This document shows positions 12,888 through 30,837 of a DNA stretch of 32,000 nucleotides, in pieces (position 1 is the stretch's first letter; every line of letters starts with the position of its first letter). A program made the position numbers and the translations under genes. The DNA lies in assembly GCF_000014265.1 (NCBI RefSeq), contig NC_008312.1:2940001-2972000 (forward strand), in the 5' to 3' direction. The notes under the pieces are model-generated. The model was not told where the DNA came from, searched no databases, and saw nothing but the letters and a program-made list of their open reading frames with translations. The DNA comes from Trichodesmium erythraeum IMS101 (GTDB taxonomy: Bacteria; Cyanobacteriota; Cyanobacteriia; Cyanobacteriales; Microcoleaceae).

Positions 12888-13380
12888 TTTACTAATATCT
12901 ACGCCATAAATGCGTGCTTTTATATTTTTTTTGCTCCTATTAATAATGATATTTTATATATTATTAGTATTTTTATTTTATCTATCATTTTTTATCAAAT
13001 TTTTCAATAATTTTTTGATTAAAAACTAACAACAAAAAACAGTAAATTAATTTTTTTGTGTGTAGCGATCGCTATAATATAGCACCATATAAATACTAAT
13101 ATATACGCCATAAATATGTGATTTTATATTTTTTTGCTCCTATAAATAATTTAGTTTATATATATAAAATTTATTTTTTTTGATGTTATTTTTTAGTAAA
13201 TTAGCCAATAAATTTTTGAGTAAAAACTAACAGAAATAAACAGATAATTATTTTTTTCCTGTGGAGCGATCGCTATTAATAGTATTATATCAGTGTTTCT
13301 ACTTACTCCTTAAATGTGTGATGCTGCATTTGTTTTTGCTGCTATAAATTTTGATATTGATATTATATATATAACTATAG
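12888..13380. repeat. Degenerate ~201-204-bp tandem repeat, about 2.5 copies, extremely AT-rich, each full copy ending in a HIP1 site
   Basis: The following segments align: tactaatatctacgccataaatgcgtgcttttatatttttt..gctcctattaataat (12890), tactaatatatacgccataaatatgtgattttatattttt..gctcctataaataat (13094) and tacttactccttaaatgtgtgatgctgcatttgttttt..gctgctataaatttt (13301). HIP1 sites lie at 13065 and 13266. Confidence 0.8.
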
Positions 13381-13428
13381 TCTAACTGACTTGCAGTTTA
13401 GTGCAAATCTCTATTTGTTAGATAAAGA

Positions 13429-13472
13429 GGAGTTGGTGAAGGCTAAACCTTCACCAACTCCCCTCCTATTTT
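13429..13472 (+). terminator. Strong hairpin (14-bp perfect stem, 5-nt loop) followed by a T-rich tract; candidate plus-strand intrinsic terminator or structured RNA element
   Basis: GGAGTTGGTGAAGG (13429-13442), loop ctaaa, then CCTTCACCAACTCC (13448-13461), followed by cctcctatttta. No annotated gene lies upstream on the plus strand other than the repeat arrays. Confidence 0.5.
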
Positions 13473-14634
13473 AGGTTTATTATTGATAAAAAAAATACTT
13501 TAAATACTCTTGAAAATATGACAAAAAAGGGTTAAAAATCAAACAAAAAAAACAATAAAAATGAAATATTGGATAATTATTGAGGCTAAAAAAAGCAGAA
13601 ATTAATTATCGCAATATAGTTTAAATATTTAAAAAAAATTATATTTTATATCAGTCTATTAAACTGTAAAAATATCAGAATAATCAGCTTTTTTTTATCA
13701 CAATTAAATCTACAAAATTGCCGAAAATACATACAAAATTTTTTAGGATTAAAACAATTTATTTTACCTATATTCTGATTTTTTTAGTCAATATTCTGAT
13801 AAGAAAATGCTTTTATTTCAATCATAAGTAGTATTAACTTTAGATATAAACTAGTGAAAAAATATCAATATATTAATAATAAGTGTAGTTTAGAAAAAAA
13901 GAACATTATCTATATACTAAAACAATTAAGTTATCAATATCCAAGTAATATAACAGAACAACAAGGAGTAATTCGTCATATTTTAAGATTATTGAAAAAA
14001 TTTAACTAATTTTAGTAATAGATAGGAAATTACATAGTATCCATCTATCATGTTGGTTAAAAAATTATCCTCAAAAATATCTATACTTTCCATTTCTACA
14101 AAAAAACGAAATTAAGGGTGCTAGTAAATATTGTAAACTCGAGAAATTAAAAGTAAAATTTGGCTAAAAAAATTATTATTAAATCAAAAAAAATAAAAAA
14201 ATCAAGCAAGTCTTTCTATGCAATTTGTTGATATATAAAAAGCGCAAAATTAACCAGAAAAATATATCAAAACCTAGTAAATTATTAGTAATTTATTTTC
14301 GCTAGATAAAATTAATAAAGTATATAGTCAAAAAATAGAAATCAAGGATATGTTTGAAAAAATGTAATAATTGAAATTACAATTTTGAATAAGCAAAAGC
14401 AAACAAAAAAAATGAAATAATTTTATTGTAGTTTTATTCAATAATAGGTAGAGAATTTAGTACATTACATTCTCATAAGCTACCCTATTATCGAAAAGGA
14501 ATTAAAGCTATCTCAAAGATTAATACTCTGTAGAATCGTTTTCTTGTTTTTTTCTTGAATTATCAACTCTTTTTTATAATCTTTTTAAGAGCATTTAGAG
14601 TATTTTTTTTGAATAAATAATCAACTAAAATAGA

Positions 14635-14671
14635 GGGGAGTTTTTGAAAGCGAAGGGTTCACCAACTCCCC
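14635..14671 (+). repeat. Diverged second copy of the 13429 hairpin element (shared right arm TTCACCAACTCCCC)
   Basis: GGGGAGTT-tttgaaagcgaagggttcacc-AACTCCCC. The right arm gttcaccaactcccc closely matches cttcaccaactcccc at 13449-13463, and the left arm is partly mutated. Confidence 0.4.
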
Positions 14672-14959
14672 CTTATTAAAAATAAGCTTTCCATTGGACT
14701 TGAATTACTATTCAGCTTAACCTGTAAATTCCTTGAGATATTTATTTTCCAGCTAGCTTGTCACCCCGTGATCATTTTTACTTAATGTATGGGTATGAAA
14801 TGATTGTTATACTTTTTAGTTTAAGTCTTTACAAGCCAACAAGTCGAAAATAATCATTAAATTAAAAAAAACTACTAAAAAGTCGCTTTTCTAGGGCAAG
14901 GCTTCAAACCAAGTTTTTTGGTAATATATTATTGTTGATAAGCTAAAACTTAAGCAAAT

Positions 14960-15835
14960 ATGGCTCTAACAAAAACACAACTAATTGGTTTAAAAGCAAA
15001 TCATTTTCGGCATCCCTTAGATCTAGAGGCAACAAATGCTTTGAAGCAACTTCCTGGTATAGACCTCTTAGTTAGACAGTTGTTAAGTCCATTAGGTGAG
15101 CAATTTTTCTATATGGAAAATATTGCTTCCAGTGTTCTCGTCAGTGAAGCACAACTGCCAAATTTACACAAAACACTATTAGACGCTTGTCAAGCACTTG
15201 ACATAGAACCACCCCAATTATATATTCGTCAAAATCCTGTACCTAATGCTTATACATTTGCTATGCGAGGGAAGCAACCTTTTATTGTTGTTCATACATC
15301 TCTAATAGAGTTGCTCAACTTAGAGGAGATCCAAGCAGTATTAGGTCATGAGCTAGGACATCTTAAATGTGAGCATGGAGTATATCTTACCCTAGGTAAC
15401 TTAATTGTACTTGCTGCTGGACAAATTTCGACATGGGGTGGCATAATAGCCCAAAGCTTACAAAGCAAAATACTAGAATGGCTAAGATGTGCCGAATTTA
15501 GTTGTGATCGCGCAGCCCTACTGGCCACACAAAATTCTCAAGTAGTTGTATCAGCTTTGATGAAGTTAGCTGGTGGTTCTCCAACAATATCACCTCAACT
15601 TAATGTAGATGCTTTTTTAGCTCAGGCAAGAGCTTATAATGAACTTAGTAATACAGAAGTTGGTGAAGTATTAAAGGAAGTCCAAACGGCTCAACTAACT
15701 CATCCTCTACCTGTATTGAGGGCCAAAGAAATTGATATGTGGGCAAGTAGCAAAAAATATCAGGATATATTGCAAAATTTAGCAAAAGATGTGTATAATA
15801 ATCAAAGGATTAAGGGCGGGTGGCGAAATTGGTAG
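14960..15835 (+). CDS. M48-family zinc metallopeptidase (HtpX/Ste24-like)
   Basis: 291-aa ORF with HExxH at VLGHELGHLKCEH. It shows the context typical of cyanobacterial M48 peptidases (FAMRGKQPFIVVHTSLIELL..EEIQAVLGHELGH...EFSCDRAALL). The last 22 nt overlap the tRNA gene. Confidence 0.85.
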   Translation: MALTKTQLIGLKANHFRHPLDLEATNALKQLPGIDLLVRQLLSPLGEQFFYMENIASSVLVSEAQLPNLHKTLLDACQALDIEPPQLYIRQNPVPNAYTFAMRGKQPFIVVHTSLIELLNLEEIQAVLGHELGHLKCEHGVYLTLGNLIVLAAGQISTWGGIIAQSLQSKILEWLRCAEFSCDRAALLATQNSQVVVSALMKLAGGSPTISPQLNVDAFLAQARAYNELSNTEVGEVLKEVQTAQLTHPLPVLRAKEIDMWASSKKYQDILQNLAKDVYNNQRIKGGWRNW

Positions 15836-17063: not shown

Positions 17064-17879
17064 TTATCCTACAAGACATTTGCGGAAAATTCCCAATTCA
17101 TCAATATTAAGGGCTTTCTGCTTCATCGTACTTGCCCTCCGAGATTTACTCTCTTCAGGTCTTACAGTCGCGACCCAGACTGACACTGCCTGTCCGGTAG
17201 CCAAAATGTTTATACTTGCGTTTAGATAACTATCATGGTGACTAGCGCTTTCAGGACAGTCCCATTGTCTAATATTTAAAGATAATTTTTCTACTATATG
17301 AATACAATTAGAGTAACGTTTAGAACTAGGAAAATATCTGTCAATTTTTATTAATGTACGACTATACCATTGAGCTTTGTATTCTAATTGCTTCACTAAT
17401 TCTCCCCAATTAGCATCACTTATTGCTATCGTACTGGGTATACAACCTAGTAGTAATTGCCTGCTCCATCTAATATATAATTGTTCTGCATACTTAGCTA
17501 AATAGACTTGACCATCTTTACATTTGAAGGCTGACTTTGTAAACGTAGCACTACCAACATTTCTTTTTTTCTTGGAATTAGGATATTTAGTATGTCCACT
17601 AAAAAGGTTATTAGAAGCCGTTTTTAAATATCTTAAGCTTTGCTGTAATACTACACTGCTTACTTCAGGGAGAAAACTTAAATATTCCGGTTTTTTCCAA
17701 GAAGTCAATATAGCTGAAGTTTGTTTATAGCTCACTCTTTCTGGGTGTTCATGCCAAGCTTGAGTTCTAGTTGCTAAAGCTTTGTTGTAGATGAGGTGTA
17801 TACAACCCAAAATCCTCAGCAACAGAATTTCCTGCTCTGGAGTTGGATAAAATCTAAATTTGTATGCTTTTTGGACCAT
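17064..17879 (-). pseudogene. tnpB: Decayed TnpB (IS200/IS605-family OrfB, RNA-guided nuclease family) with a large internal deletion
   Basis: - N-terminus MVQKAYKFRFYPTPEQEILLLR..GC...IYNKAL is the classic TnpB start.
- C-terminal ISDANWGELVKQLEYKAQWYSRTLIKIDRYFPSSKR.SNC.H matches the TnpB RuvC-II/zinc-finger region.
- Only 271 aa against about 400 expected. The segment between ..PSTIAI and SDANWGE (RuvC-I and central region) is missing.
- Zinc-finger cysteines are replaced (YSNCIH, CPESA) and HDRDxNA reads HDSYLNA. Confidence 0.8.
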
Positions 17880-18557
17880 CTACTGCTTAACTTTTAATAT
17901 TTAAATTTTAGAATATTTTTTGTAAGAACACAACATTGATTGGTTTTCATCTCAAAGCTCCCTTAAAGGAGAGCGCGGGTCTTTAAGCAAAATTGATATA
18001 AAGCTTAAAGTCTCATTCCTTTAATCTTAAATTATGTAGACTTACAGTTATAAACTATACTAAATATGAAAATTTAAATTAGTTCAAAGCATAATTATAT
18101 TGCTTTCTATATTTATTAATCATGCAGATGTTTAGATCAAATAATTTTCAGTATTCAAAGTAATTTTGGGAATTACAATAGTTAATAGTTATAAGTATAA
18201 ATTATAGAAATACTATTTATTATAGTACTGTTTTCTTATTTTATCACTGTAAGATTCATTATACTTAACTGCTTAATAATTGAAAAAATATTCAAAAAGC
18301 TTGTTATATAAAAAAATTGTAGCTATTGGAAATCAAACATAATAATTATTGCTTCTGTGTTTACTTGAACAATTTTTGTTACCTCTATTTAGCAACAACT
18401 TTCTTAAAGTTAAGCTGGTTTGTTTTTGAGCTATATGTTATAATATAAAAAATATTAAACTCAGGGCAATTTTTGATAATATGTAGTCTTAATTTGTACA
18501 TATAATTAATTATTGCTTACTCTAGAGATATTGTGCATTATAATTAAATATTGGAAA

Positions 18558-18603
18558 GTTGTTGGTCAACTTTATGATCAAAATACTTGAGCTGACCAAC
18601 AAC
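18558..18603. other. 11-bp inverted repeat (GTTGTTGGTCA ... TGACCAACAAC) with 24-nt spacer, about 85 nt downstream of hli
   Basis: Seen directly at 18558-18568 and 18593-18603. The long loop and weak T tract make it only a possible terminator. Confidence 0.3.
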
Positions 18604-18688
18604 AATCCTGTAAAAAATTAGAGGTAGACTCTAGCTTTAATATCTATTATAATATATATTTAAAAACTTAATGTAGATATTCAGAGCC

Positions 18689-18859
18689 CTAATTGAGACC
18701 CAACCAAGAGAGCAAACCTTCTCCAGTAAAGTATTCGATTGCTAAAGTCAATACAAAACCAATCATTGCTGCTCTACCATTCAGGCGTTCTGCGTACTGG
18801 TTAAACCCAAATTTTGGCTCATCCAAGTTAGGTGTATTAGTAGGTTGTGGTTGTTTCAT
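18689..18859 (-). CDS. hli: High-light-inducible protein (HLIP / one-helix CAB-like protein), 56 aa
   Basis: Below the ORF-track size cutoff. The reverse strand reads MKQPQPTNTPNLDEPKFGFNQYAERLNGRAAMIGFVLTLAIEYFTGEGLLSWLGLN*. FGFN.YAE..NGR.AMIGF......E is the chlorophyll-binding HLIP/CAB motif. Confidence 0.88.
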   Translation of the reverse strand: MKQPQPTNTPNLDEPKFGFNQYAERLNGRAAMIGFVLTLAIEYFTGEGLLSWLGLN

Positions 18860-19028
18860 TATCAATTGGCCTTAAAATTAATAGTGTTTGCAAATAGAGT
18901 TGTTTGTTTATAATTATTAAGTATATTTTAAAAGGAGTCGACCCAGTGTCAATATCTCTGTGCAAAAATTTTAGCGAGAGAGTCGAGAAGCTCCACAATT
19001 AAAGTTTTCACCGAAAAATTTGGTAAGT

Positions 19029-19595
19029 ATGTCAAATTCATTAGACTCCCCTTCTTCCTTACCACCTGCAGTCGAACAAGTAGCCAAAGCTCTGCGACTA
19101 GGTGGATGGATTTGTTTTTGGGTACAACTTGTCCTCGGTATGGTTTCAGGTATAATTTTTATTTTTGCTGTAGGTTTACTAAGCCAGAATACTGGAGCTG
19201 GCACAGGAGGTGGACTATTTTTTGCAGTTTGTAGTCTTGTGGTACTAGGATTCAGTATTTTCTTGTCATTTCGGTATACCCGCTTAGCAAGGCAATTGCG
19301 ATCACAAATATCTTCTTTAAGGCCAAGCAGGGCAGATACAACTCAAAAAGTAAAAAGGACTTTAATTATTAACTTAGTTGGGATGAGTCTAGCTTTATTA
19401 GGAGGAGAAGCAATTGGAGGTATTTTATTAGGCAAATCCTTAGTGAGTAAGTCATTTGTATTTAACCCTACAGAACTAGAAAAATTTACACTAGATATTT
19501 TTATACTCTTGGGTAATACTCACATAATTGTAGCTCATTTTATTGGGATTATAGTAGGGCTATTTTTGCTTGATAGGGTTTACAACAAGCAGTGA
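19029..19595 (+). CDS. Four-TM membrane protein, DUF3611-like (family containing plant TIC21/PIC1 homologues)
   Basis: The track ORF starts at TTG 19020; the first ATG is 19029. Four hydrophobic helices are present (GGWICFWVQLVLGMVSGIIFIFAV, LFFAVCSLVVLGFSIFLSF, LIINLVGMSLALLGGEAIGGILLG, HIIVAHFIGIIVGLFLL). The RLGGWI.FWVQLVL start is as I recall for this conserved cyanobacterial family. Confidence 0.65.
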   Translation: MSNSLDSPSSLPPAVEQVAKALRLGGWICFWVQLVLGMVSGIIFIFAVGLLSQNTGAGTGGGLFFAVCSLVVLGFSIFLSFRYTRLARQLRSQISSLRPSRADTTQKVKRTLIINLVGMSLALLGGEAIGGILLGKSLVSKSFVFNPTELEKFTLDIFILLGNTHIIVAHFIGIIVGLFLLDRVYNKQ

Positions 19596-20959
19596 AGTTG
19601 ACAATAGTTTTCTATTTTGGATATCCTCAAAACTATCTTGAAAGCCTACGATAATATGAATATTTTTTTTAGTGATTGATTGCCTCAGTAGTCTTAATTA
19701 TTAATCACTTCTATAGAAAAATATTTTGAGAGACAATGCACATTGGTAGAAGAAAAGTATATTAATAATGGATATATCAACTTGATAGCTTTTTACCCAA
19801 TCCTAATCTCTCTAAAAACTAAATTTGTTTGTAGATTGCTCAAGAATTGTATAACCTTATTCTCAACTTATACTCTCAGGTTTTTTAGGAAAGTTTTCTC
19901 TTTCTTGTTATGACTGACTGTGTCGGGTCAAATCTCTCGGAGGGTTCGTTATAGTTACTTACCATTAGCACTCATTCATTTGTTAAGTTTGAGTAGGTTT
20001 AGTAGTTTGCTGGTTTGGTGGTATGGAGCAAAGATAGTTAGTAGGTTTGCTGATAGGGAGCAAAGATAGAAAATTATTGAAGTAAAAACTTATTGAGAAA
20101 AACCCGGGCTAAAATTGATGCATTTGGTAGTAAGGTATTATCAATTTTTTAATTCTTTAACTCTTAACCTGAAACCTGAAACCTGAAATATGATATCTTA
20201 AATCAACAACGAATTCTATTTTATAGAAACTCGGAATTATATCCTATATTCGAGTAGTTACTGACTGAATATTTCATATCCTAGAGAGTTTATTACCTAC
20301 CTTCCTTCGTGTTTGTGAATGTATCAGTTTGAGTTGGAGGTATTGTTTCTGGTAACTGGTATTTTCCCGGGGTTTAATTTAACTTCAGAGATTGATGTTC
20401 AGTTACTATTCTGTGGACTATGCTGTCAACCCAACAACAGAACAGTATAAGATTTCAGCCTACTTGGTCATAAGAGTTATTTATAAGTCGAGGTTGTCCT
20501 GATATATTGATTTAGAACGGTCATTTATATCCTAATTACAGGTGTTGTAGCTAATGGGTAGTACTTTGAAGTTAGTATTATACCAAATCCGCTTTAATAA
20601 GAAGATAGATATTTACAAAATTCAAAACTCTTGCTTAACAAAGATTTGGGTATCTATACCACTTTTAGTTATTAATCCGGAATCAATACTAACTCACAGA
20701 ATAAATTACTTAGATTACTCCTATTAAGTAAAAATAGAACTACAACCATAGCCATGGAATTTAAACTTGCATCTAGCTATTTTTTTTACATATCTTCGAT
20801 AAAATCTGATAATGGATAGATCGAGATAGTTAGCGATCGCTACCCACTCAAATTAAAATCGAAGTCAAAAGCAAAAATAGTCAAGTTTACAGTCTTATAT
20901 TCAGAAACTTAAAATAGGAAAAATTAATCTCCAAAAATAAAAGTCAGGTTCAATAAAAC

Positions 20960-21700
20960 ATGAGTACAAACCTAGCTACTACTATAGAATTAGAAACTTC
21001 AACTGAATCAATCATCCTATCTAGAAACTCTGATAATACAGACACTAATCTATCAGAAAATAACTACAATTTATCTCAAGAGTTTGAACCAAAAAGATAT
21101 CTACTAAAATGGAATAAAAAGCCGACAAAAGCAGAACAAGAAGCTTTGTTGCTTGAGGAAAGAAATACATATCTACAGGAACTAGGCGAAAAACTACAAA
21201 AAGCGCGAAAAATGCGTTGTTTATCAATAAAACAAATTCATAAACAAACTTTCGTGCCACTTCATTATATAGAAGCAATAGAGAAAGGTGAAACCGAAAA
21301 ATTACCAGAAGATATATATCTTCGGGGATTCATCTTTCATCTTGGCAATGCTTTAGGATTTGATGGAGTAACTTTAGCAGCAGCCTTACCTATTTCCAAT
21401 TCACTTCAAGGTTTAATTCCATCTTGGTCTGAGTCCAATAAAGGCTTTGGATTTTATCTACATCCAGCTTACTTATATTTAGGTTATGCAGCTTTAATAG
21501 CTGGAGCAGTAGGTGGACTAAATTGGATATCTCAACAACCAAGTCCTGAAGCAAATCTGATTCGGAAGACAATAGAACCTCCTAATTTAGCTGCCCATTC
21601 AAATCAGCATTTAGAAACGACTCAAAGACCAGGATTAAAATACACTAAAGATAGTCTAGTTGTTGGTTCTGATATAGCTCCACCAGAAACAATGATTTAA
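20960..21700 (+). CDS. RodZ-like helix-turn-helix (HTH_25-type) membrane-anchored protein
   Basis: [61 protein letters not shown] matches the RodZ N-terminal HTH pattern. A single TM helix follows ([20 protein letters not shown]). No obvious DUF4115-type C-terminal domain. Confidence 0.7.
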
Positions 21701-22827
21701 TTTGTCAGCAAAAGATTATTTCTATGTACAACTGTTTCAGCTCCCACATAGCCCAAAATATCAGATATATTTTCTGAGCGACAACCTAGAATTTTTTGCA
21801 ATTCAATACTGCTGTAGTTCACAAGTCCCCTAGCTATTTCCTGGCCTTTTTCATTGCATAGTTTGACAGCATCCGATGAATTAAATTCTCCTTCTACTTG
21901 AATAATACCAGCAGCTAATAGAGATTTACCATACTCAGAAATTGCCTTAACTGCACCTTGGTCTAGATATAGTTGGCCTGCTGGAACTAAAACATTGGCA
22001 ATCCAATGTTTGCGACCATTGACTTGTTCTGGTTGAGGTTCAAACTGAGTACCTATAGATTCTCCATTGAGGATTTTTTGTATATTAGTGGGTACTTTAC
22101 CATCAGTAATTACAGTTCGGACTCCAGCAGAAGTAGCAATTTTAGCAGCCTCAATTTTTGTAACCATTCCCCCAGTTCCTCGTCCACTAACAGACTCTCC
22201 AACTTGAACTTTAAGTTCTTTGAGTTGTTCTATTTCCCCTACTAAGGTAATGGGTAAAGCATCTGGATTTTTTCTCGGGTCGGCGGAGTATAATCTATCG
22301 ACATCAGTTAGTATGAATAACCAATCAGCCTCTACTAGACTGGCAACTAAAGCTGATAGAGTATCATTGTCCCCAAAATTTAGCTCTTCAACAGCAGTGG
22401 TATCATTTTCATTCACTATTGGGACTACACCTAGTCGAAAAAGTTGTTGAAATGTGTTGTAGGCATTGACATAACTACTACGTCGTGACAGGTCACTTTT
22501 TGTTAATAAAATCTGGGCAACTGTTTGTTGCAAAGATGAAAACAAGTCATTGTAAACTCGCATTATTTGTCCTTGACCTACTGCTGCTATGGCTTGTTTC
22601 ATAGAAATATTTCGAGGCTTTTTGGTTAGTCCTAATATATCGCAACCTACACCAACAGCTCCAGAAGATACTAAAACTACTTGATATCCCTGCTGACGTA
22701 AATTGATAATAGTTTCAATTAAGCTAGAAATTGTAGATAAGGCTAAATTTCCGGTTTCTGAATTAGTTAGGCTAGAAGTGCCTATTTTGATCACTATTGT
22801 ATTCATAGAAATAATTGAATTTTCCAC
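21697..22827 (-). CDS. proB: Glutamate 5-kinase with C-terminal PUA domain
   Basis: 376 aa with [56 protein letters not shown], and a PUA-like tail ([11 protein letters not shown]...[14 protein letters not shown]...D.V.L). Confidence 0.92.
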
Positions 22828-22993
22828 TACTAATTCTCAAGCAAAAAATCAGCTTTGAACTAATTACAAAATATTAATTATTACAATCTCTTGTATAGTT
22901 AGCATTGTCAATAATTTCTGATTGATTCTCATGCAAACAACTCCCTCAAGATGATAAAAAATGGGGTTTTTGATTGAGAATATATAGTGCTTT

Positions 22994-23002
22994 TGGTATA
23001 AT
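22994..23002 (+). promoter_or_regulatory. Extended -10-like element TGGTATAAT
   Basis: Exact TGnTATAAT in the 760-bp proB/oxidoreductase intergenic region. The identical 9-mer recurs at 23391. Confidence 0.25.
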
Positions 23003-23390
23003 TTTACTGAGTGGATAAAATACTATTATAAATTCCTAAATCTTGTTTGTATAGCACTTGCTCCCAGATTTCATGCCCTCATAATTTTTCATTATAATAA
23101 TGGGGATGAGATAGTTAAAAATCATTGTTAACTCTCTTGAGCACTAGATATAATAGGTCAAAATTAATCTAGTTTCTATTTATCAAAGTAAATATATTTA
23201 TAAAATACTACTAATGGTTGTATTTTTATGGCCATGAAGCAAGTAATTGAGGACTTTACAGATTTATAACTTGAGAATCCCAAGCTTTTTATTGGAAAAA
23301 AAGGGTAAGGTCAAAGATTCTCAACTCAAAAATACTATTACTAATTTTGACAATTAGAAACTAGTAAATCCATGTTTTTTTAAGATTATG

Positions 23391-23399
23391 TGGTATAAT
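23391..23399 (+). promoter_or_regulatory. Extended -10-like element TGGTATAAT, about 190 nt upstream of the oxidoreductase ATG
   Basis: Exact TGnTATAAT on the coding strand of the downstream gene. Confidence 0.3.
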
Positions 23400-23590
23400 A
23401 TCATTCTTTAATGTTTGTTATCGAAAAATTATCATCATCGACACTCCCTAAAAATTGGAAAACCTAAATAGAATTTCATAGCACTAGCTTCAACTAGCAA
23501 ATTAAGATAAATTTGCAAAGACTAAACAAAACAAATCTTTAGTCTAATTAGTTAGGTGTGCTGGAGGATAATCTAGGAGTGCTAAATAGA

Positions 23591-24661
23591 ATGTCAACAC
23601 TATATTCAACTGATTTTACCAAAAATAGTCAAGCAAAACTACTTCGTGTAGGGGTAATTGGGGTCGGTAATATGGGGCAGCATCATACCCGTGTCCTAAG
23701 CTTGCTCAAAGATACTGAATTAGTAGGTGTAGCAGATATCAATGTTGAAAGGGGACTAGATACTGCCAGTAAGTATGGAGTTCGTTTTTTTGAGGAGTAT
23801 CAAGAGCTTTTGCCTCATGTTGATGCTGTCTGTGTCGCTGTGCCCACTCTTCAACATTATGCTGTAGGAATGACCTGCTTAAAGGCGGGAGTTCATGTAC
23901 TAATGGAAAAACCCATCGCTGCCAGTATTGGTGAGGCGGAGTTTTTGGTTAATACTGCTGCTGAAACAAATAGAATTTTACAGGTGGGTCATATAGAAAG
24001 GTTTAATCCTGCTTTTCAAGAACTCAGTAAAGTTCTGAAAACGGAAGAATTACTGGCCTTGGAAGCTCATCGGATGAGTCCTTATTCTCATAGGGCTAAT
24101 GATGTGTCTGTAGTGTTGGACTTGATGATTCATGATATTGATTTATTACTAGAGTTGGTGGCTGCCCCAGTTGTCAAACTGACTGCTAGTGGTAGTAGTG
24201 CTTCTAGTTCGGGAAATTTAGATTACGTTACGGCTACTCTTGGCTTTGCTAATGGTATTGTGGCTACTTTAACGGCCAGTAAGGTGACACATAAAAAACT
24301 TCGTTCCATCGTTGCCCACTGTAAAAATTCTTTGACAGAGGCAGATTTTCTCAACAATGAAATTCTGATTCACCGTCAAACAACAGGAGATTATGTGACT
24401 GACTATGGTCAGGTTCTTTATCGTCAGGATGGTTTAATTGAAAGGGTTTATACTAGCAATATTGAACCTCTTCATGCAGAATTAGAGCATTTTGTTTATT
24501 GTGTAGGTGGAGGAAATAAACCTTCAGTTGGAGGAGAACAAGCTCTTAAGGCATTAAGATTAGGTAGTTTGATTGAGAAAATAGCTATTGATGATTTGGC
24601 TTACCATCCAGTAGATTCAGAATTTAATTTGTTGAATAATTCTATGCTGAAAGTGGGGTAA
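23591..24661 (+). CDS. Gfo/Idh/MocA-family NAD(P)-dependent oxidoreductase
   Basis: Rossmann start RVGVIGVGNMGQHHTRVL, the EKP motif (VLMEKPIA) and GHIERFNP. The track start is GTG 23558; the first ATG (23591, AGGAG 11 nt upstream) is preferred. Confidence 0.85.
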   Translation: MSTLYSTDFTKNSQAKLLRVGVIGVGNMGQHHTRVLSLLKDTELVGVADINVERGLDTASKYGVRFFEEYQELLPHVDAVCVAVPTLQHYAVGMTCLKAGVHVLMEKPIAASIGEAEFLVNTAAETNRILQVGHIERFNPAFQELSKVLKTEELLALEAHRMSPYSHRANDVSVVLDLMIHDIDLLLELVAAPVVKLTASGSSASSSGNLDYVTATLGFANGIVATLTASKVTHKKLRSIVAHCKNSLTEADFLNNEILIHRQTTGDYVTDYGQVLYRQDGLIERVYTSNIEPLHAELEHFVYCVGGGNKPSVGGEQALKALRLGSLIEKIAIDDLAYHPVDSEFNLLNNSMLKVG

Positions 24662-25490
24662 AATATTTTGATAATTCTACTAGGAATTTTTGCTAATAAA
24701 TATTATACTAAATCTCAAAAGTATTGCTATGTATTTTTGAGGTTAGGATGGAATATTGTATCCAACAATTATTTGGGTATTAGGGTTTTACCGAATAATA
24801 TATTCTCGCTAAATTTCTATAATTGTTAAAGGTATTACTGAACTTTACTTATTACTTAATAGCTGAAGTTTTGGTCAATTTTCCTATTATTTTTGGGAAT
24901 TAGTATGATTTTTGGCTGATTTTTTTATATATTACTCCGCCTATATTGATAGATTTAGGCGGATTTTTATGCAAGGAAAGTAACCTTGTTAGTTTAAATA
25001 GCTCCTAATACCAAGTGTGATAAATATTTGCTACAAATGACTAGGAAATTTATGAGGAATTAGGAATTAGAATTAATGGTTTCAATACCTAATACCATTT
25101 TTTAATTTTCAGGTGAGAAATTATCTGTTTTTGCCAAAGAAAAATTTCCTGTAAAGTATTTCATTTAATATGAAATGACTATAGCAGTTCTTTCATCTAT
25201 GAGGTACAGTTTTAGATACCCCTGCTCTCCTTTTTAAGCTATCCCTGATCGGGAACTACTGATACCCTTTTCTTTTCTGGTAGTGACATGGGGACATAGC
25301 CTTAAGCCCGACTTTAGATAGGAACAGGTGGAAGAGCGATCGCTATTTTCACATAGGGAAAAAAATATCTTGGGAAAAACCTATGTTTAAATACATTTAC
25401 TATTGAGAAATATTCAATTTATAGTAAATTTGTAACTTCTTTCTTTTGTCAAGTTTGACATTAAAAAATATTTTTATAAACCATAGCTAA

Positions 25491-25522
25491 AAAAGAGAGG
25501 CTTAAAAGCAGCCTCTCTTTTT
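25491..25522. terminator. Bidirectional rho-independent terminator
   Basis: aaaaaGAGAGGCT-taaaagc-AGCCTCTCtttttt has an A-run upstream and a T-run downstream. It lies about 150 nt downstream of the MIF-like gene (minus strand). Confidence 0.7.
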
Positions 25523-25670
25523 TAGGGAGAAAACAGGGAATCATAAACGCACCTCATAACTGGGGGAATTGCTATATAAGTATTAAAATTCTTTAATAAA
25601 TTACTTTTGACTTATGACTTTTTAGTTGCCCGTAGCCTTATAATTTCCTCAAAAAAATCAGGAAAAGTTA

Positions 25671-26024
25671 TCAAAAAGTTGAACTATTCCAACCCCAAAG
25701 ATAACCTTGAGCATCAGAAAATTCTATATAGATTCGATTTTTAGGAACCCCGAGAGTTTTATTAATTTGTTCACAAAAATCTTGACTCATTTCTTTGGTT
25801 TGGTTAGGCTTCATACTACCAATACTTTTAATTTCTATGTAGCAAGTCGGCTCATCACTATTTCCACCAAAAGTCATGGGAATATCAGATTCAAAGGCTG
25901 TCATTACGTAAGATTCTGATTTACTAAAATGCTTGGCCATACTAGATGAAAGTTGTTTGAGAAGGTTGTCAATTTTATCTTTTTCTAGTTGGGCAACGGA
26001 AGTTTTGACTTTGATTAATGGCAT
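25671..26024 (-). CDS. MIF / tautomerase-superfamily protein (macrophage migration inhibitory factor-like), 117 aa
   Basis: Start moved to M19 of the track ORF so that the product begins MPLIKVKTS (catalytic Pro-1). It aligns by eye with MIF: ..MTFGG.S.P.CYIEIKSIG......N...S...C..I...LG.P..RIYI.F.D.....WGWN.STF. Confidence 0.8.
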   Translation of the reverse strand: MPLIKVKTSVAQLEKDKIDNLLKQLSSSMAKHFSKSESYVMTAFESDIPMTFGGNSDEPTCYIEIKSIGSMKPNQTKEMSQDFCEQINKTLGVPKNRIYIEFSDAQGYLWGWNSSTF

Positions 26025-26150
26025 AGTTCGATTAATAGTTGAGGATGAACAAAATAAACTATTTACGTAGGTCTTCAATTATAAAAGTTAACTAATCAAT
26101 TGTCTATAATAGACCTAAAGAAAGGAAGGGAAAACACATAGAAAAAATAT

Positions 26151-26789
26151 ATGAATATCAAACGGGCATTGAAAAGTATAACTAAGGGAGTTTCGACCTT
26201 TGCTGGACCTCTGGGGGCTCCTTTTGAAGCATTGCTATATTTCGTTGAGGATAAACAAACACAAGAGCGTGAGGCTCAACTAGATGCAATGATCTTTGAG
26301 GTACAAAGTTTGAACCGTGAAACTCTTGAGGAGATATTTCAAGCTAGAGAGGAAATTAAGGAATTGAGGGCACAATTTATTTTGGCAATGGAAATTTGTT
26401 TTTCTATTTTAGCTGAAAACAGGAAATTGTTGTTTAGTCCAGATTTAGAACAAAATCTTCCTTTTTTTATTGAACCATATAAGGAACGGTTGGAAGCAAG
26501 TGGGTTGATTACTAATGATGTTTTGGCTGATGCACTTTATCATTGTTATGAAAAAGATGCTCGACTTTTTTTAGCACATATTTCTGCTGATTTTCCTGTG
26601 GGAGAACTTCGTAGTTATGAGGCTTTACCTGTTATTATTTCTGATTTTTTAACAAGATTTTCTGGTCAGGGATTAAATCAACAAGCTAAAATATTTAAGA
26701 CTTTAAGTAAGAAAAATCCAGGTAGTAGACCTTTAAGGGTAAAAAGCTTGATGCTTCAAGAACAAGTGATTAATCAAATAGGGAAGTGA
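26151..26789 (+). CDS. Hypothetical 212-aa protein: hydrophobic/amphipathic N-terminus, coiled-coil, C-terminal adaptor-like helical module shared with the next gene
   Basis: ORF 10 nt upstream of the next gene.
- N-terminus: KGVSTFAGPLGAPFEALLYFV
- Coiled-coil-like: QEREAQLDAMIFEVQSLNRETLEEIFQAREEIKELRAQ
- C-terminus: YEKDARLFLAHISADFPVGELRSYEALPVIISDFLTRFSGQGLNQQAKIFKTLSKKNPG, which parallels residues ~35-97 of the 1204-aa protein. Confidence 0.7.
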   Translation: MNIKRALKSITKGVSTFAGPLGAPFEALLYFVEDKQTQEREAQLDAMIFEVQSLNRETLEEIFQAREEIKELRAQFILAMEICFSILAENRKLLFSPDLEQNLPFFIEPYKERLEASGLITNDVLADALYHCYEKDARLFLAHISADFPVGELRSYEALPVIISDFLTRFSGQGLNQQAKIFKTLSKKNPGSRPLRVKSLMLQEQVINQIGK

Positions 26790-26799
26790 GAAAATATTT

Positions 26800-29700
26800 A
26801 TGCCTAGTGAGTTTGAAAAGGTTCTAGACGAGATTAGAAAACGAAGTAGTAAATATGAAGATATTGGAGATGTTAAGAGGGAAATTATTAATGCGCTTTC
26901 ACAAAGATATAAAACACAGGAACGTTTGTTTACACATTATGTTCTAGAAAAAGGGGGATTTGATATTCGTAAATTAACTTTAAGTGACCCTCTGCTAGTA
27001 ATTATATCTGATTTTTTTAATCAGTGTAATGGTCTAAACAAAAACGAATTATATAAATTTTTTAGAGTGTTATATGATGAAAATAAAGGTATTAGTTTGC
27101 TAAAAGAAATTAGAGATACACTTGTACAATTTAAACATCAAAGTACTGATACTCCTACATATACACCATCACCATACATATCAGTTATTACTTCAGAAGC
27201 AATAGGCTTAGTAGAAGCAAAATATGGACAGTCTCTAGAACAGGGAAAAAACTTTGCTAAAAAAGTTGATTGTAATAATTTTCAGGATGTACAAGCTTTT
27301 TTTAATAATGGGGGACAAGCTGGTAAACAGCTTGCTATTTTGGAGCCAGGAACCTATTACATTAACCCCGAAATATTCACTATTCGTACAGTTCCTATTA
27401 TTAGGATTCTTCAAGGAGAAATAGGACTGGTAATAGCCAATGAGGGGACTTTTAAGTCTGATGAACAAACGTTAGGTAGAGTGGTGGAATGTGATAACTT
27501 TCAGGATGCTGAAGCATTTCTGAAAAATGGAGGACAAAAAGGTAAGCAACTTGCTATTTTGACTGACGGTGACTATAAAATTAACACTGATTTCTTTAGC
27601 GTAATTACTACTACTAATGCCTATAAATATAATGAAAATCCAAATAATTTAAAGGTTTATAAAATCGACAAAGATAAAATTGGTATTTTAACTACGATGG
27701 TTGGGAAAATTCTCCCTAAAGGTGAAATTGCTGGACCAATAATTGAAGGACACGATAATTATCAAAATGCACAAAAATTCCTAGATTTAGGAGGATATAA
27801 AGGATTGCAAGAAGAAGTTCTCCAAGAAGGAGCCTGGAGTCTAAATCCTTGGTTTGTTGAAGTTGAGCAGGTACCACTAACTAGAATTGAGCAAGAAGAG
27901 GTGGGAGTTGTTATATCTTTTGTTGGAAAAGAATATGACAAAAATTATGATCAACAGCCCATTTTTTATGGTGCAGAAAAGTCTCTATACCAATTAGTTC
28001 CAAAAGGGTACAAAGGAGTTCAAAAAGAACCTCTTACTGCTGGTCAATATGCAATTAATACCAGAGTAAAAACGGTCAAATTAGTGCCAACTACCCAAAT
28101 TATACTGAATTGGTCAGATCAGAAAAAACATCCCTTAAATTATGACTATGAACTGAAACAAATGAAGCTAATTTCTAGAGACCATTTTGAAATTTTTGTT
28201 CAGTTTACCCAAATTATTCGTATTGCTGCTGAGAATGCTCCTAAGATGATTTGTATGGTTGGATATTATACAGGGGAAGACAAAATATATGTTACTGATG
28301 ATTCTGGGCAAGTTGTTAAGAAATATGCAGTTATTAGAAATTTAGTTTCTCGTGTATTAACAAAAGTTGTTTATAGTCATTTTCAACAAGCTGCTACTGG
28401 TAAAACGGCAATACAGTTTCTAAACACAAGAGGTGACTCTCAAAAGGAGGCCGAAAATTATATAAAAACACTTCTTGAAATGATTGGTGTTGAAGGATGT
28501 GGCACTTTTATGGTTGATACAGTTAATCTACCTCTAGTAGTTGATTCTTACTTACAAGAGAAACAAAAGCAAGAGGCAAGAGAAGCTCAAGCAAAAGCTG
28601 CACCTGAACGGCTTCTTGAACCTGAATTTGTTGAGAATCCTGAACAACGGCTTCCTGAACCTGAATTTGTTGAGAATCCTGAAAACCGTTGTCCCATTAT
28701 CCTCCTACTGGATACATCTTACTCAATGTCAGGAGAAGCTATTACTGAATTAAATCAAGGAGTGAAAATATTTCAGGCAAGTGTAAAGGAAGATGAACTG
28801 GCTTCCTTAAGAGTAGAAATAGCTGTCATTACTTTTAACAGTGAAATTGAAGTAGTTCAAGATTTTGTTACTGTAGATAAATTTATTCCCAAAACATTAG
28901 AAGCATCAGGAGTAACGCACATGGGAAAAGCTATTGAAAAAGCCCTAGAATTATTAGAAAAGCGAAAACAAGACTACAAAAATAGCGATATTCAATACTA
29001 TCGACCCTGGATCTTTCTAATTACTGATGGGCAACCTACTGATACTTGGCAAGATGCAGCAAAAAAAATAGAAGAAGCTGAAACTAATAGAAAATTACTT
29101 TTTTTTGCTGTTGGGGTAAGAGATGCAGATATGGAGACATTAAGTGAAATTTCTGTATGCCCTCCTAAAAAACTCAACGGCTTAGATTTTCAATCTTTGT
29201 TTAAATGGCTAAGTTTTTCACTTCAGCAAGTTTCAGTTAGCAAGATAGGAGAAAAGAATAGACTTCCTCCAACGAATGCATGGGAAGAAATAACTAGTAA
29301 AAATCAAAATACTAAACAGACTCAACAAACTCAACAAAAGACAACAATTCCTAATTCTGACCCTAATCCTGAACCAATTATCCCTATCTTAGTTTTAGAT
29401 AGAGATATTTTTAAAGATCAACGAATTAAGAGTAATTCGGAGGGAGAAATTTGGATAACTCAAAAATATCGCTACCGAAAGAAATACCTAATAAAAATTT
29501 ATTATGAAGTTACACCAGCAAGGATAAAAAAGTTAGAAGTAATGGTAGCTTATAAACCGAAAAATTTTCATGGTTCTCAACAAGCGTGGGCTTGGCCTGA
29601 GTATTTACTAGCAGATAAAACAGGAAAAATTATCGGCTTTGTCATGGAATTTATTGAAGATAGTAAACTGCTATTTAATATTTATAATCCTCAGCGTCGT

Positions 29701-30414
29701 AAGCAAATAAATAGTCAACTCCACTGGTCAGTAGACTGGCTTTTTCTTCACCATACTGCTAAAAATATTGCTACTATTATTCAGTCTCTTCATAGTCAGG
29801 ATTATGTTATTGGAGATATGAAGCCACAAAATATTCTAGTTAACCGATATGCTTCTGCTTCAATAATTAATACAGACTCATTTCAAGTTCGCCATCCTCA
29901 GACAAAAGAAATCTATCATTGTTTAGTTGGTTCCGAAGAATTTACCCCTCCTGAACTATTAGAAAAAGAATTAGCAAAAATTGTTCAAACTCCTACCCAT
30001 GATAACTTTAGATTAGCCCTTATTATCTATCATTTATTATTTGGAGGACATCCCTTTAAAGGAAGGTGGATAGGAACAGAAGAGCCACCCAAAATTGATG
30101 AACTCATCCGACTAGGTTTCTGGTGCTATGCTCCCAATAGTAAAATTCTACCAGGACCGAGAACTATTCCCCTTGAAATAGTTCACCCCAAAATTCAAAA
30201 ATGCTTCCAAAAATGCTTCAACGATGGACACTATCATCCAGAAAAACGACCCACTCCTCAGAACTGGGTTGACGCTTTAGAGAGTGCCATTAATGATTTA
30301 GTACAGTGTAAAAGAGTTGATACCCATTGGTATAGTAAAACTTATGGCAAATGCTATTGGTGCGAAAGAGAAGAAAAATTAGAGGTTGACATATTTTCTG
30401 ATTCCAAAACATAA
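26800..30414 (+). CDS. 1204-aa multidomain protein: N-terminal adaptor-like module, repeat-expanded SPFH/band-7-like region, TerY-type vWA domain, Ser/Thr protein kinase (YegI-like) with C-terminal Cys/His knuckle
   Basis: - 26800-27129: helical module homologous to the C-terminus of the upstream ORF.
- 27265-27990: three repeats of (V/I)(D/E)C.NFQD..AF..NGG..GKQ..IL..G.Y.IN...F.
- about 27860-28554: SPFH-like core (EQEEVGVVISFVGKE; LTAGQYAINTRVKTVKLVP; ISRDHFEIFVQFTQIIRI; IRNLVSRVLTKVVYSHF..A.GKTAIQFLNTR; IKTLLEMIGVEGCGTFMVDTVNLP).
- 28690-29250: vWA with MIDAS DTSYSMSG (D638), ITDGQPTD and FKWLSFSL, as in TerY.
- 29400-30300: kinase with YLIKIY (Lys), VIGDMKPQNILV (D1006/K1008/N1011), NTDSFQV (D1026) and EFTPPEL.
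- Tail: C..(5)..H..(9)..CYWC. Confidence 0.85.
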   Translation: MPSEFEKVLDEIRKRSSKYEDIGDVKREIINALSQRYKTQERLFTHYVLEKGGFDIRKLTLSDPLLVIISDFFNQCNGLNKNELYKFFRVLYDENKGISLLKEIRDTLVQFKHQSTDTPTYTPSPYISVITSEAIGLVEAKYGQSLEQGKNFAKKVDCNNFQDVQAFFNNGGQAGKQLAILEPGTYYINPEIFTIRTVPIIRILQGEIGLVIANEGTFKSDEQTLGRVVECDNFQDAEAFLKNGGQKGKQLAILTDGDYKINTDFFSVITTTNAYKYNENPNNLKVYKIDKDKIGILTTMVGKILPKGEIAGPIIEGHDNYQNAQKFLDLGGYKGLQEEVLQEGAWSLNPWFVEVEQVPLTRIEQEEVGVVISFVGKEYDKNYDQQPIFYGAEKSLYQLVPKGYKGVQKEPLTAGQYAINTRVKTVKLVPTTQIILNWSDQKKHPLNYDYELKQMKLISRDHFEIFVQFTQIIRIAAENAPKMICMVGYYTGEDKIYVTDDSGQVVKKYAVIRNLVSRVLTKVVYSHFQQAATGKTAIQFLNTRGDSQKEAENYIKTLLEMIGVEGCGTFMVDTVNLPLVVDSYLQEKQKQEAREAQAKAAPERLLEPEFVENPEQRLPEPEFVENPENRCPIILLLDTSYSMSGEAITELNQGVKIFQASVKEDELASLRVEIAVITFNSEIEVVQDFVTVDKFIPKTLEASGVTHMGKAIEKALELLEKRKQDYKNSDIQYYRPWIFLITDGQPTDTWQDAAKKIEEAETNRKLLFFAVGVRDADMETLSEISVCPPKKLNGLDFQSLFKWLSFSLQQVSVSKIGEKNRLPPTNAWEEITSKNQNTKQTQQTQQKTTIPNSDPNPEPIIPILVLDRDIFKDQRIKSNSEGEIWITQKYRYRKKYLIKIYYEVTPARIKKLEVMVAYKPKNFHGSQQAWAWPEYLLADKTGKIIGFVMEFIEDSKLLFNIYNPQRRKQINSQLHWSVDWLFLHHTAKNIATIIQSLHSQDYVIGDMKPQNILVNRYASASIINTDSFQVRHPQTKEIYHCLVGSEEFTPPELLEKELAKIVQTPTHDNFRLALIIYHLLFGGHPFKGRWIGTEEPPKIDELIRLGFWCYAPNSKILPGPRTIPLEIVHPKIQKCFQKCFNDGHYHPEKRPTPQNWVDALESAINDLVQCKRVDTHWYSKTYGKCYWCEREEKLEVDIFSDSKT

Positions 30415-30429
30415 CATTCCCTTGAAAAA

Positions 30430-30837
30430 TTGCTTCAAAATAAAAAGTGGAAAGAAGCTGATTTAGAAACTAAATATATTATGCTAAAGTTTGCAGGAAG
30501 AATTGATCAAGGATGGTTAGATAAATCATCCCTAGAAAATTTCCCGACTAAAGTTATTCTTCAAATAGATCAACTTTGGCGACAATATTCTGATGAACGT
30601 TTTGGCTTTGCTACACAGAAGCGTATCTATTTAGAAACTGGTAATAAATTAGAACAAATAAATTGGGAAACCTATAATCATTTTGGTGAAAAAGTTGGTT
30701 GGCGAGAAGGGGGAATGTGGAAAAATTACTTCGATCTAGAATTTTCTCTGAATTCACCAGAAGGTCATCTTCCATTCTGTTGTGCTGGTTTTAATGTTTG
30801 CTTCATTGCTCATCTAGCCCTTCTGAAAGACTTATGA
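30430..30837 (+). CDS. GUN4-like porphyrin-binding domain ORF, in the same frame as the kinase ORF and separated from it by one TAA; no ATG at the domain start (possible detached or pseudogenised C-terminal domain)
   Basis: KKWKEADLETKYIMLKFAGRIDQGWLDKSSLENFP..VILQIDQLWRQYSDERFGFATQKRIYLETG......W..F...VGWREGGMWKNYFDLEFSLNSPEGHLPF is the GUN4 domain pattern. The track start is TTG, and the first ATG (residue 18) would truncate the domain. 30430-26800 = 3630, which is divisible by 3. Confidence 0.6.
   Translation: MLQNKKWKEADLETKYIMLKFAGRIDQGWLDKSSLENFPTKVILQIDQLWRQYSDERFGFATQKRIYLETGNKLEQINWETYNHFGEKVGWREGGMWKNYFDLEFSLNSPEGHLPFCCAGFNVCFIAHLALLKDL

Follow-up and report, generated by a model that had tools for sequence, protein, structure and literature searches.

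A helical module shared by two adjacent genes of Trichodesmium erythraeum IMS101 belongs to an uncatalogued family of putative adaptor domains

The two genes and their shared module

We analyzed a window of 32,000 nucleotides from Trichodesmium erythraeum IMS101 (NC_008312.1, positions 2,940,001 to 2,972,000; coordinates given below are window positions unless another locus is named), in which two adjacent genes carry related helical modules at the ends that face each other. The first gene, open reading frame (ORF) 212 (Tery_1916, WP_011611544.1; 26151-26789), is annotated as a "hypothetical protein", and the second, ORF1204 (Tery_1917, WP_011611545.1; 26800-30414), as "von Willebrand factor, type A". 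Both genes, and all of their features described here, lie on the + strand. The C-terminal module of ORF212, or A copy, comprises residues 99-212 and, with the stop codon, spans 26445-26789 (module hidden Markov model (HMM), E=2e-40). The N-terminal module of ORF1204, or B copy, comprises residues 1-117 (26800-27150; module HMM, E=4e-54). Residues 1-98 of ORF212 (26151-26444) form a second domain, delimited by its conservation among homologues, that we call the X-domain. Throughout, A refers to a protein made of an X-domain and a C-terminal module (together, the cassette), and B to a protein that starts with the module. Only 10 nt separate the two genes (GAAAATATTT, 26790-26799). No terminator-like site was seen in this spacer, so the two genes are probably co-transcribed. 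A literature search for Tery_1916, Tery_1917 and the following gene, Tery_1918, found no paper.

A sequence-only reading of this DNA had described an ~80-residue helical module with a 2-residue indel, shared by the two genes across 26514-27129. Direct comparison agrees on the module and on the indel: in a single BLASTP comparison, ORF212 residues 125-191 and ORF1204 residues 29-97 are 32% identical, with one 2-residue gap (E=1e-7). The similarity is also significant against shuffled controls. The Smith-Waterman score of the module regions is 85, compared with a shuffle mean of 25.5 (standard deviation 4.4; z=13.5), and none of 5000 shuffles reached it; for full-length ORF212 against full-length ORF1204, z is 8.7 and none of 1000 shuffles reached the observed score. 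The extent of the module had to be revised. The interval 26514-27129 covers the conserved core, but ~80 residues is too short, as profile alignment and structure models place the homologous unit at ~100-115 residues (ORF212 residues ~99-212, 26445-26786; ORF1204 residues 1-117, 26800-27150).

Both copies are modelled confidently by AlphaFold2 as bundles of six helices in the same order, as anticipated (five or six helices had been expected), and neither is predicted to be disordered. For ORF1204 residues 1-118 (10-sequence alignment), the mean predicted local distance difference test (pLDDT) is 89.6 and the predicted template-modelling score (pTM) is 0.81, with helices at residues 4-15, 22-36, 41-51, 65-76, 81-94 and 99-117. 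In the model of full-length ORF212 (21 sequences), the module core reaches a pLDDT of 91-97, and the six-helix pattern extends over residues 99-211 (helices at 99-116, 122-132, 137-144, 159-170, 175-188 and 193-211). The small domains of the Protein Data Bank (PDB) that superpose best are the CARDs of Apaf-1 and ASC, with template-modelling (TM) scores of 0.36-0.45 by query length and 0.44-0.53 by target length, at a Foldseek probability of at most 0.28. A Foldseek search of the PDB with the full-length ORF212 model returned only noise, and a sequence-profile search of the PDB with the module alignment gave nothing below E=0.089. Homology with the Death superfamily is plausible but not demonstrated.

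The two copies are not simply duplicates of each other. Mean identity is 48% among A copies and 34% among B copies, and falls to 26.2% between A and B copies of the same locus and 23.7% between A and B copies of different loci. These values indicate that the A and B copies are old, separately inherited lineages. The simple homotypic pair of the sequence-only reading therefore has to be given up, as a recently duplicated homotypic pair does not fit this split, and any contact between A and B would join diverged paralogues. Contact between diverged paralogues is the situation of the CARDs of Apaf-1 and caspase-9.

The module family and its conserved gene pairing

The module family is rare. When 1.84 billion cluster representatives were searched exhaustively with the profile, 56 proteins were retrieved at E<=1e-3; the majority of the distant members are encoded on short metagenomic contigs. 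The module is ~100-115 residues long, all-helical and without a match to a catalytic family, and 56 of its 59 copies lie at a protein end, 31 of them at the C-terminus and 25 at the N-terminus, with the other 3 internal. Some proteins carry two modules in one chain: P0045 consists of two modules, P0047 of two modules followed by GUN4, and P0082 likewise has two. Such tandem proteins suggest that modules may pack against each other intramolecularly. The domains found with the module are diverse. In the window, the partner is an SPFH-vWA-kinase body (vWA, von Willebrand factor type A). Elsewhere, Pfam identifies GUN4 (in many members), CHAT, TRADD-like_N, bDLD1 with PNP_UDP_1, PPR repeats with a weak nSTAND3 signal, a cytidylyltransferase-like domain (CTP_transf_like), NB-ARC and a weak AAA_35. 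The NB-ARC match, in a B protein of a distant locus, is above threshold (26.7 bits against 23.5). Much of this list overlaps the vocabulary of the conflict systems of multicellular bacteria (PMC7159879, PMC8195603).

To the extent that profile libraries recognize the module at all, they do so below threshold. A Pfam scan of the window modules at E-values up to 10 gave no meaningful match. With PADLOC and NCBIfam, the kinase and vWA domains of ORF1204 were matched weakly, and ORF212 and the module were unmatched. When 49 diverse module segments were compared with Pfam, the recurrent matches were NNH2 (three segments, best E=5e-4), EAD1 (two segments, best E=0.0018) and Death_3 (one segment). 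The consensus of the module HMM scores 13.3-17.1 bits against EAD1 (PF19955; cutoff 24.2), co-linearly over positions 9-89 of 90, and matches NNH2 at E=0.0035; NNH2 scores of the module are 17.5-20.4 bits against a threshold of 27. The strongest single case is the module of P0052, which matches Death_3 at E=5e-5 (23.8 bits, cutoff 27) and NNH2 at E=4.6e-4. Profiles of the effector-associated and death-fold classes, against which the sequence-only reading would have its module judged, thus give sub-threshold matches only. By all thresholds tested, the module lies outside every catalogued family; our reading is that it probably branched off, and diverged, from the EAD1/NNH/Death-like radiation of helical adaptors.

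Most C-terminal copies of the module are immediately preceded by the X-domain. This domain is recognized by the motif AGPLGxPxE...YDD...EREA...L.EIFE...ELREQ and occurs in ~15 stand-alone proteins of 203-240 residues and in ~11 longer proteins. There are exceptions: P0060 and P0061 end in a module without an X-domain, and P0088 has the cassette at its N-terminus. A Pfam search with 21 X-domain members gave nothing beyond noise and no match to EACC1, and no transmembrane segment was predicted in the domain (KD19 maximum of 1.23 against a threshold of 1.6). This conservation pattern indicates that the X-domain is a conserved uncatalogued domain, and that ORF212 is more than a coiled coil with a module. 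Four of the longer proteins, P0049 (1149 residues), P0080 (1000), P0077 (713) and P0055 (587), end in the cassette; Pfam matches nothing in the long regions that precede it, which may be effector or sensor domains of new kinds.

The order of an A gene followed by a B gene is conserved. It is found in 10 of 11 informative loci with a stand-alone cassette, whose guanine plus cytosine (GC) contents range from 0.31 to 0.58, with a gap of ~10 nt or an overlap between the genes. The paired loci are drawn from the window, six Okeania loci (L001-L006), L007-9 (Hyella patelloides), L010, L012/13 and L022; L011 is too short to judge. In each of the six Okeania loci, a gene ending in a module is followed at once by a gene starting with one. 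A species-representative genome scan with a narrow pattern found three Okeania loci, one per genome. In Hyella patelloides, the B partner is a PPR protein of 1251 residues (P0058) after a 10-nt gap. The B partner of L010 carries the weak AAA_35 signal, the pair of L012/13 lies in DNA with a GC content of 0.53-0.585, and in L022 a NACHT gene follows the B partner. Spacing is ~10 nt, or the genes overlap, in L007, L010, L012 and L022. The exact ORF1204 protein is present on 23 contigs, and the 212-residue gene lies directly upstream of it in all four of the loci shown. In Okeania sp. SIO1I7 (L005, 7602-7934), a stop codon or frameshift interrupts the A gene, which is left as two short ORFs in a degraded pair.

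The Hyella pair also occupies a variable position. L007 (4690-9456) and L015, on the Stanieria plasmid pSTA7437.03 (NC_019750.1; 7644-9883), have flanking genes in common (a GIY-YIG/NTPase gene, two hypothetical genes and a KfrA-like gene) and differ in the insert between them. In Hyella, the insert is the pair of cassette and module-PPR genes, and in Stanieria, it is a hypothetical gene with one annotated as "S-4TM family putative pore-forming effector". Because the pair takes the slot that a putative effector occupies in the plasmid backbone of Stanieria, its position would fit a swappable conflict cassette. Plasmid searches with the window DNA and with the cassette consensus gave no match.

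The variable body of ORF1204

Downstream of the B copy, ORF1204 continues with a Pro/Thr-rich linker (residues 118-128, 27151-27183) and about three repeats of ~72 residues (CxNFQD...GGQxGKQ...INP; residues ~127-360, 27178-27879). The repeats were recognized from the homologues P0017-P0020, which carry at least four of this type, and no Pfam domain covers them. They precede an SPFH/Band_7 domain (residues 363-600, 27886-28599; PF01145, E=9.4e-10, 39.3 bits, cutoff 23.6). The vWA domain (residues 633-833, 28696-29298; PF00092, E=6.5e-14) has an intact metal ion-dependent adhesion site motif, DTSYS, at residue 638. A 39-nt tandem repeat between the SPFH and vWA domains (28607-28683, two copies, 97% match) corresponds to a duplicated "PEPEFVENPE" linker. 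The last domain is a Ser/Thr protein kinase (residues ~874-1199, 29419-30411; PF00069, E=5.2e-11) of the non-RD type (IGDMKPQN), with DSF and PPE motifs and a CxxC tail. Its catalytic residues are kept, and the kinase is apparently active.

ORF1204 joins in one protein what Okeania keeps apart. The gene order of the Okeania clusters is A, then B (module, in some cases TRADD-N-CHAT, and GUN4), then a gene C that encodes a large protein with repeats and SPFH, in some cases with vWA; L003 has separate vWA and kinase genes as well. The repeat region of ORF1204 shares 66-69% identity with gene C, which stands apart in the Okeania loci, and the vWA and kinase regions of ORF1204 are 54% and 43% identical, respectively, to the stand-alone vWA and kinase genes of L003. 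Tery_1917 thus combines the B module, the SPFH body of C, the vWA domain and the kinase, and P0039 is an independent fusion of module and SPFH. Rosetta-stone fusions of this kind speak for a joint role of the module-bearing protein and the SPFH, vWA and kinase proteins.

A marine-metagenome contig (L023) represents the same chromosomal locus, with 99.4% DNA identity over 9.4 kb. The identity ends at window position 27183, a recombination breakpoint at residue 128 of ORF1204, in the linker just past the module. Beyond it, L023 (9001-10514) encodes a module-GUN4 protein of 338 residues, followed by an SPFH gene whose product is anchored by a transmembrane (TM) segment. Because identity stops just after the module and the bodies differ, the comparison shows that close relatives have swapped the body that follows the adaptor. 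As L023 carries module-GUN4 and a separate SPFH gene, Tery_1917 is a derived, rearranged fusion allele.

The two alleles also differ in an uneven manner. Of 53 substitutions between the window and L023, 33 fall within the 1.0 kb that covers ORF212 and the B module (26151-27183). The density there is 20-42 substitutions per kb, compared with 0-5 per kb in the flanks (17793-26150). Ratios of non-synonymous to synonymous substitutions in the two module genes are 11:3 and 11:5, and substitutions cluster at ORF212 residues 25-32, immediately past the AGPLGAP motif. Such a hotspot could reflect diversifying or balancing selection, or the import of a sequence; because this is a single pairwise comparison of two alleles, the pattern is only suggestive.

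The kinase domain is followed by an in-frame TAA stop codon (30412-30414) and by a GUN4 domain that shares its frame (Tery_1918, ORF135; 30415-30837; PF05419, E=1e-33, with the match beginning at profile position 14). Proteins from other Trichodesmium metagenome-assembled genomes have a Tyr at the site of the TAA ("...SDYKTYHSLEK..."), and their kinase and GUN4 domains are continuous in one protein. The stop codon is therefore a nonsense mutation specific to the IMS101 lineage, which cut GUN4 off an ancestral module-SPFH-vWA-kinase-GUN4 protein. The stand-alone GUN4 ORF has a TTG start and is without the first ~13 profile positions of the domain.

Other features of the window lie upstream of the pair. 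A giant ORF of 2194 residues (4187-10771) contains Calx-beta, Kre9/KNH-like Ig, FG-GAP and fn3-like repeats and has a GC content of 0.42-0.46, compared with 0.22-0.33 in the adjacent sequence on both sides. The GC content is very low at 13001-15000 (0.216-0.25), and no ORF of at least 90 residues occurs there until an M48 peptidase gene at 14960. On the - strand, an ORF of 271 residues (17064-17879) with HTH_OrfB_IS605 and Cas12f1-like TNB domains is a TnpB-type remnant of the IS605 family, which is also present at the allelic locus L023.

A candidate two-gene adaptor system and its alternatives

Effector-associated domains (EADs) are the closest described parallel; EAD1-EAD11 and the related bDLD1-3 were defined by Kaur, Burroughs, Iyer and Aravind (eLife 2020, PMC7159879; eLife 2021, PMC8195603). 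The arrangement described here shares most features of the published EAD principle (PMC7159879, PMC8195603). Like the module, EADs are small non-catalytic helical domains located at protein termini, and two neighbouring genes carry one copy each. Both have CHAT or caspase domains, TRADD-N, GUN4, kinases, phosphorylases and STAND NTPases among their fusion partners, and both are enriched in filamentous and colonial cyanobacteria. EADs differ in that one copy sits on an NTP-dependent core (VMAP, iSTAND, GAP1, Ubl; MoxR-vWA/GTPase), whereas neither the window nor the distant loci have a named core. Another difference is that the module usually travels with a second uncatalogued domain, the X-domain. 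The Okeania TRADD-N entries of the 2021 paper (PMC8195603) are different genes from those described here.

Other systems resemble the pair in part. The EACC1 two-gene system ("System 4" of Kaur et al. 2020) also encodes at its 5' end a small component that stays constant and is in some cases fused to an EAD, and its 3' gene combines a caspase or CHAT domain with highly variable effectors; comparably, the Okeania locus L006 and the proteins P0040 and P0041 have the module, in some cases TRADD-N, CHAT and GUN4. EACC1 has a conserved TM helix with a patch rich in small residues and glycine, whereas the X-domain has the AGPLGxP patch and no TM segment; moreover, EACC1 is found mainly in actinobacteria, and the B protein of the window has no caspase domain. 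We considered the X-domain as an EACC1 and rejected this assignment, since its hydrophobicity is too low (KD19 of 1.23, where 1.6 is needed) and Pfam gives no match. The Bell/BASS-NLR pairs and the fungal HET-S/NWD2 pairs of effector and NLR (Dyrka et al., bioRxiv 10.1101/2020.01.06.895854) likewise consist of a small helical protein (~100-200 residues) with a C-terminal tag that recurs at the start of the product of the next gene, and their genes are collinear and at most 10 bp apart or overlapping. The Bell/BASS-NLR pairs share with the module their occurrence in multicellular bacteria and, in the distant module loci, a STAND/NB-ARC partner with repeats. Their tag, however, is an amyloid-forming motif of ~15-25 residues, whereas the module is a confidently modelled six-helix domain of ~100 residues. 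In Bell proteins, the N-terminal helix is hydrophobic and carries an acidic residue at position 2-3; the X-domain lacks such a helix, and because its N-terminal sequence features differ, the X-domain was also rejected as a Bell domain. Finally, the Death-fold adaptors of animals (CARD, DD, DED and PYD) are six-helix bundles that sit at protein ends and connect sensors with effectors, and the module is predicted to be a terminal six-helix bundle too; it differs from them, and from Death_3 and NNH2, in that its matches are all sub-threshold and its Foldseek probability is at most 0.28.

We propose, with a probability of about 60%, that Tery_1916 and Tery_1917 form a co-transcribed two-gene system that is joined by a shared six-helix adaptor and operates in the manner proposed for EADs. 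Its constant partner, the A protein, consists of X-domain and module, and the B protein combines a paralogous module with a variable, swappable body. This body is SPFH-vWA-kinase in IMS101 (ancestrally with GUN4), GUN4 alone or TRADD-N-CHAT-GUN4 in sister lineages, and a STAND/NB-ARC NTPase with PPR repeats in distant bacteria. In the proposed mechanism, the module of A would bind the module of B. Activation or oligomerization of B (through SPFH rings here and STAND oligomers elsewhere) would cluster the B modules, which would then recruit and concentrate A, or the reverse. In this way, a sensing or signalling protein would be coupled to a small constant partner. On the basis of the domain vocabulary and the behaviour of the locus, we infer that the system may belong to a conflict, programmed-cell-death or kin-recognition network of multicellular or colonial bacteria. 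The adaptor class named in the sequence-only reading, effector-associated and death-like, is thus upheld in part: the module is small, helical, terminal, variously fused and paired across genomes, and its death-like nature is not established.

Several observations weigh against this proposal. No EAD, bDLD, Death or NNH model reaches its threshold with the module, PADLOC matches only the kinase domain, and Foldseek searches of the PDB with both models gave nothing significant (best E-values of 1.6 and 0.9). The N-terminal half of ORF212, the X-domain, is helical in a model of low confidence (pLDDT 46-76). Pairing is not universal: the stand-alone cassette of L014 is unpaired, and the long proteins with a C-terminal cassette in L020 and L021 have no adjacent partner. 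A and B copies of the same locus are barely closer than copies of different loci (26% against 24%), so one hallmark of EADs, neighbouring copies that are each other's nearest relatives, is absent here. Lastly, the window contains no MoxR, STAND or GTPase core gene.

The alternative that survives best, unlikely as we judge it, is that A is a capping regulator, which would hold the kinase, CHAT or STAND body of B inactive through its N-terminal module until a trigger removes A. The CARD-only and Pyrin-only proteins of animals are capping regulators of this kind. A has no recognizable enzymatic or membrane-active domain, catalytic and effector-type domains are all on the B side, and A is constant where B is variable, all of which would suit a regulator. 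However, larger proteins also end in the cassette, among them one with a cytidylyltransferase-like domain and one with a weak SLOG-like match, and this resembles the tagging of effectors for recruitment more than a dedicated inhibitor. As capping still needs contact between the modules, it amounts to a variant of the two-gene adaptor system rather than an alternative to it.

It is decidedly improbable that the modules only self-associate, each acting as a generic oligomerization domain, with the adjacency of the genes reflecting shared regulation. The age and distinctness of the A and B lineages (~26% identity) would be in keeping with self-association, and the tandem modules of P0045 and P0047 make intramolecular or homomeric contacts conceivable, but it leaves unexplained why A precedes B in 10 of 11 loci of very different genomes while the body of B changes wholly. 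That the similarity arose without function, through local duplication, gene conversion or the splitting of a gene in a pseudogene-rich genome, has very little to recommend it beyond a recombinationally active locus (the breakpoint at 27183, the nonsense codon at 30412 and the degraded A gene of L005), and it is largely refuted by the conserved pairing; the copies are only 23-32% identical, persist as intact separate genes in distant taxa, fold confidently in the models, and recur together where the exact ORF1204 protein is found (23 contigs, with the 212-residue gene directly upstream in the four loci shown).

A more far-reaching version of the two-gene adaptor system is tentative, and we consider it doubtful. 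It holds that the pair is a previously unrecognized switch for death, immunity or kin recognition, in which a folded domain related to the Death fold would take the role of the BASS amyloid. Variable sensors (STAND/NB-ARC-PPR in some bacteria; SPFH-vWA-kinase-GUN4 or TRADD-N-CHAT-GUN4 in Trichodesmium and Okeania) would recruit the X-domain as a small constant executioner or transducer, and the Trichodesmium locus would evolve by body-swapping just past the adaptor under diversifying or balancing selection. If true, such a switch could tie the regulated death of bloom-forming colonies to their tetrapyrrole and photosynthetic status.

What is new is an uncatalogued adaptor family and a new constant domain, the X-domain, under the known EAD principle. 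To our knowledge, the logic of bacterial EAD and Death-fold adaptors is known from computation only, and very few such pairs have been tested. The pair is compact and tractable, with two soluble domains of ~100 residues that have confident models and with natural body-swap alleles. Because the module and the X-domain are absent from Pfam, NCBIfam and PADLOC, current annotation and defence-system pipelines overlook the family entirely. Trichodesmium, which fixes nitrogen and forms blooms, is of global importance, and we know of no account that resolves how its regulated cell death and bloom collapse are wired at the molecular level. A hypervariable, adaptor-coupled locus with CHAT, TRADD-N, kinase and GUN4 domains is a concrete candidate for that wiring.

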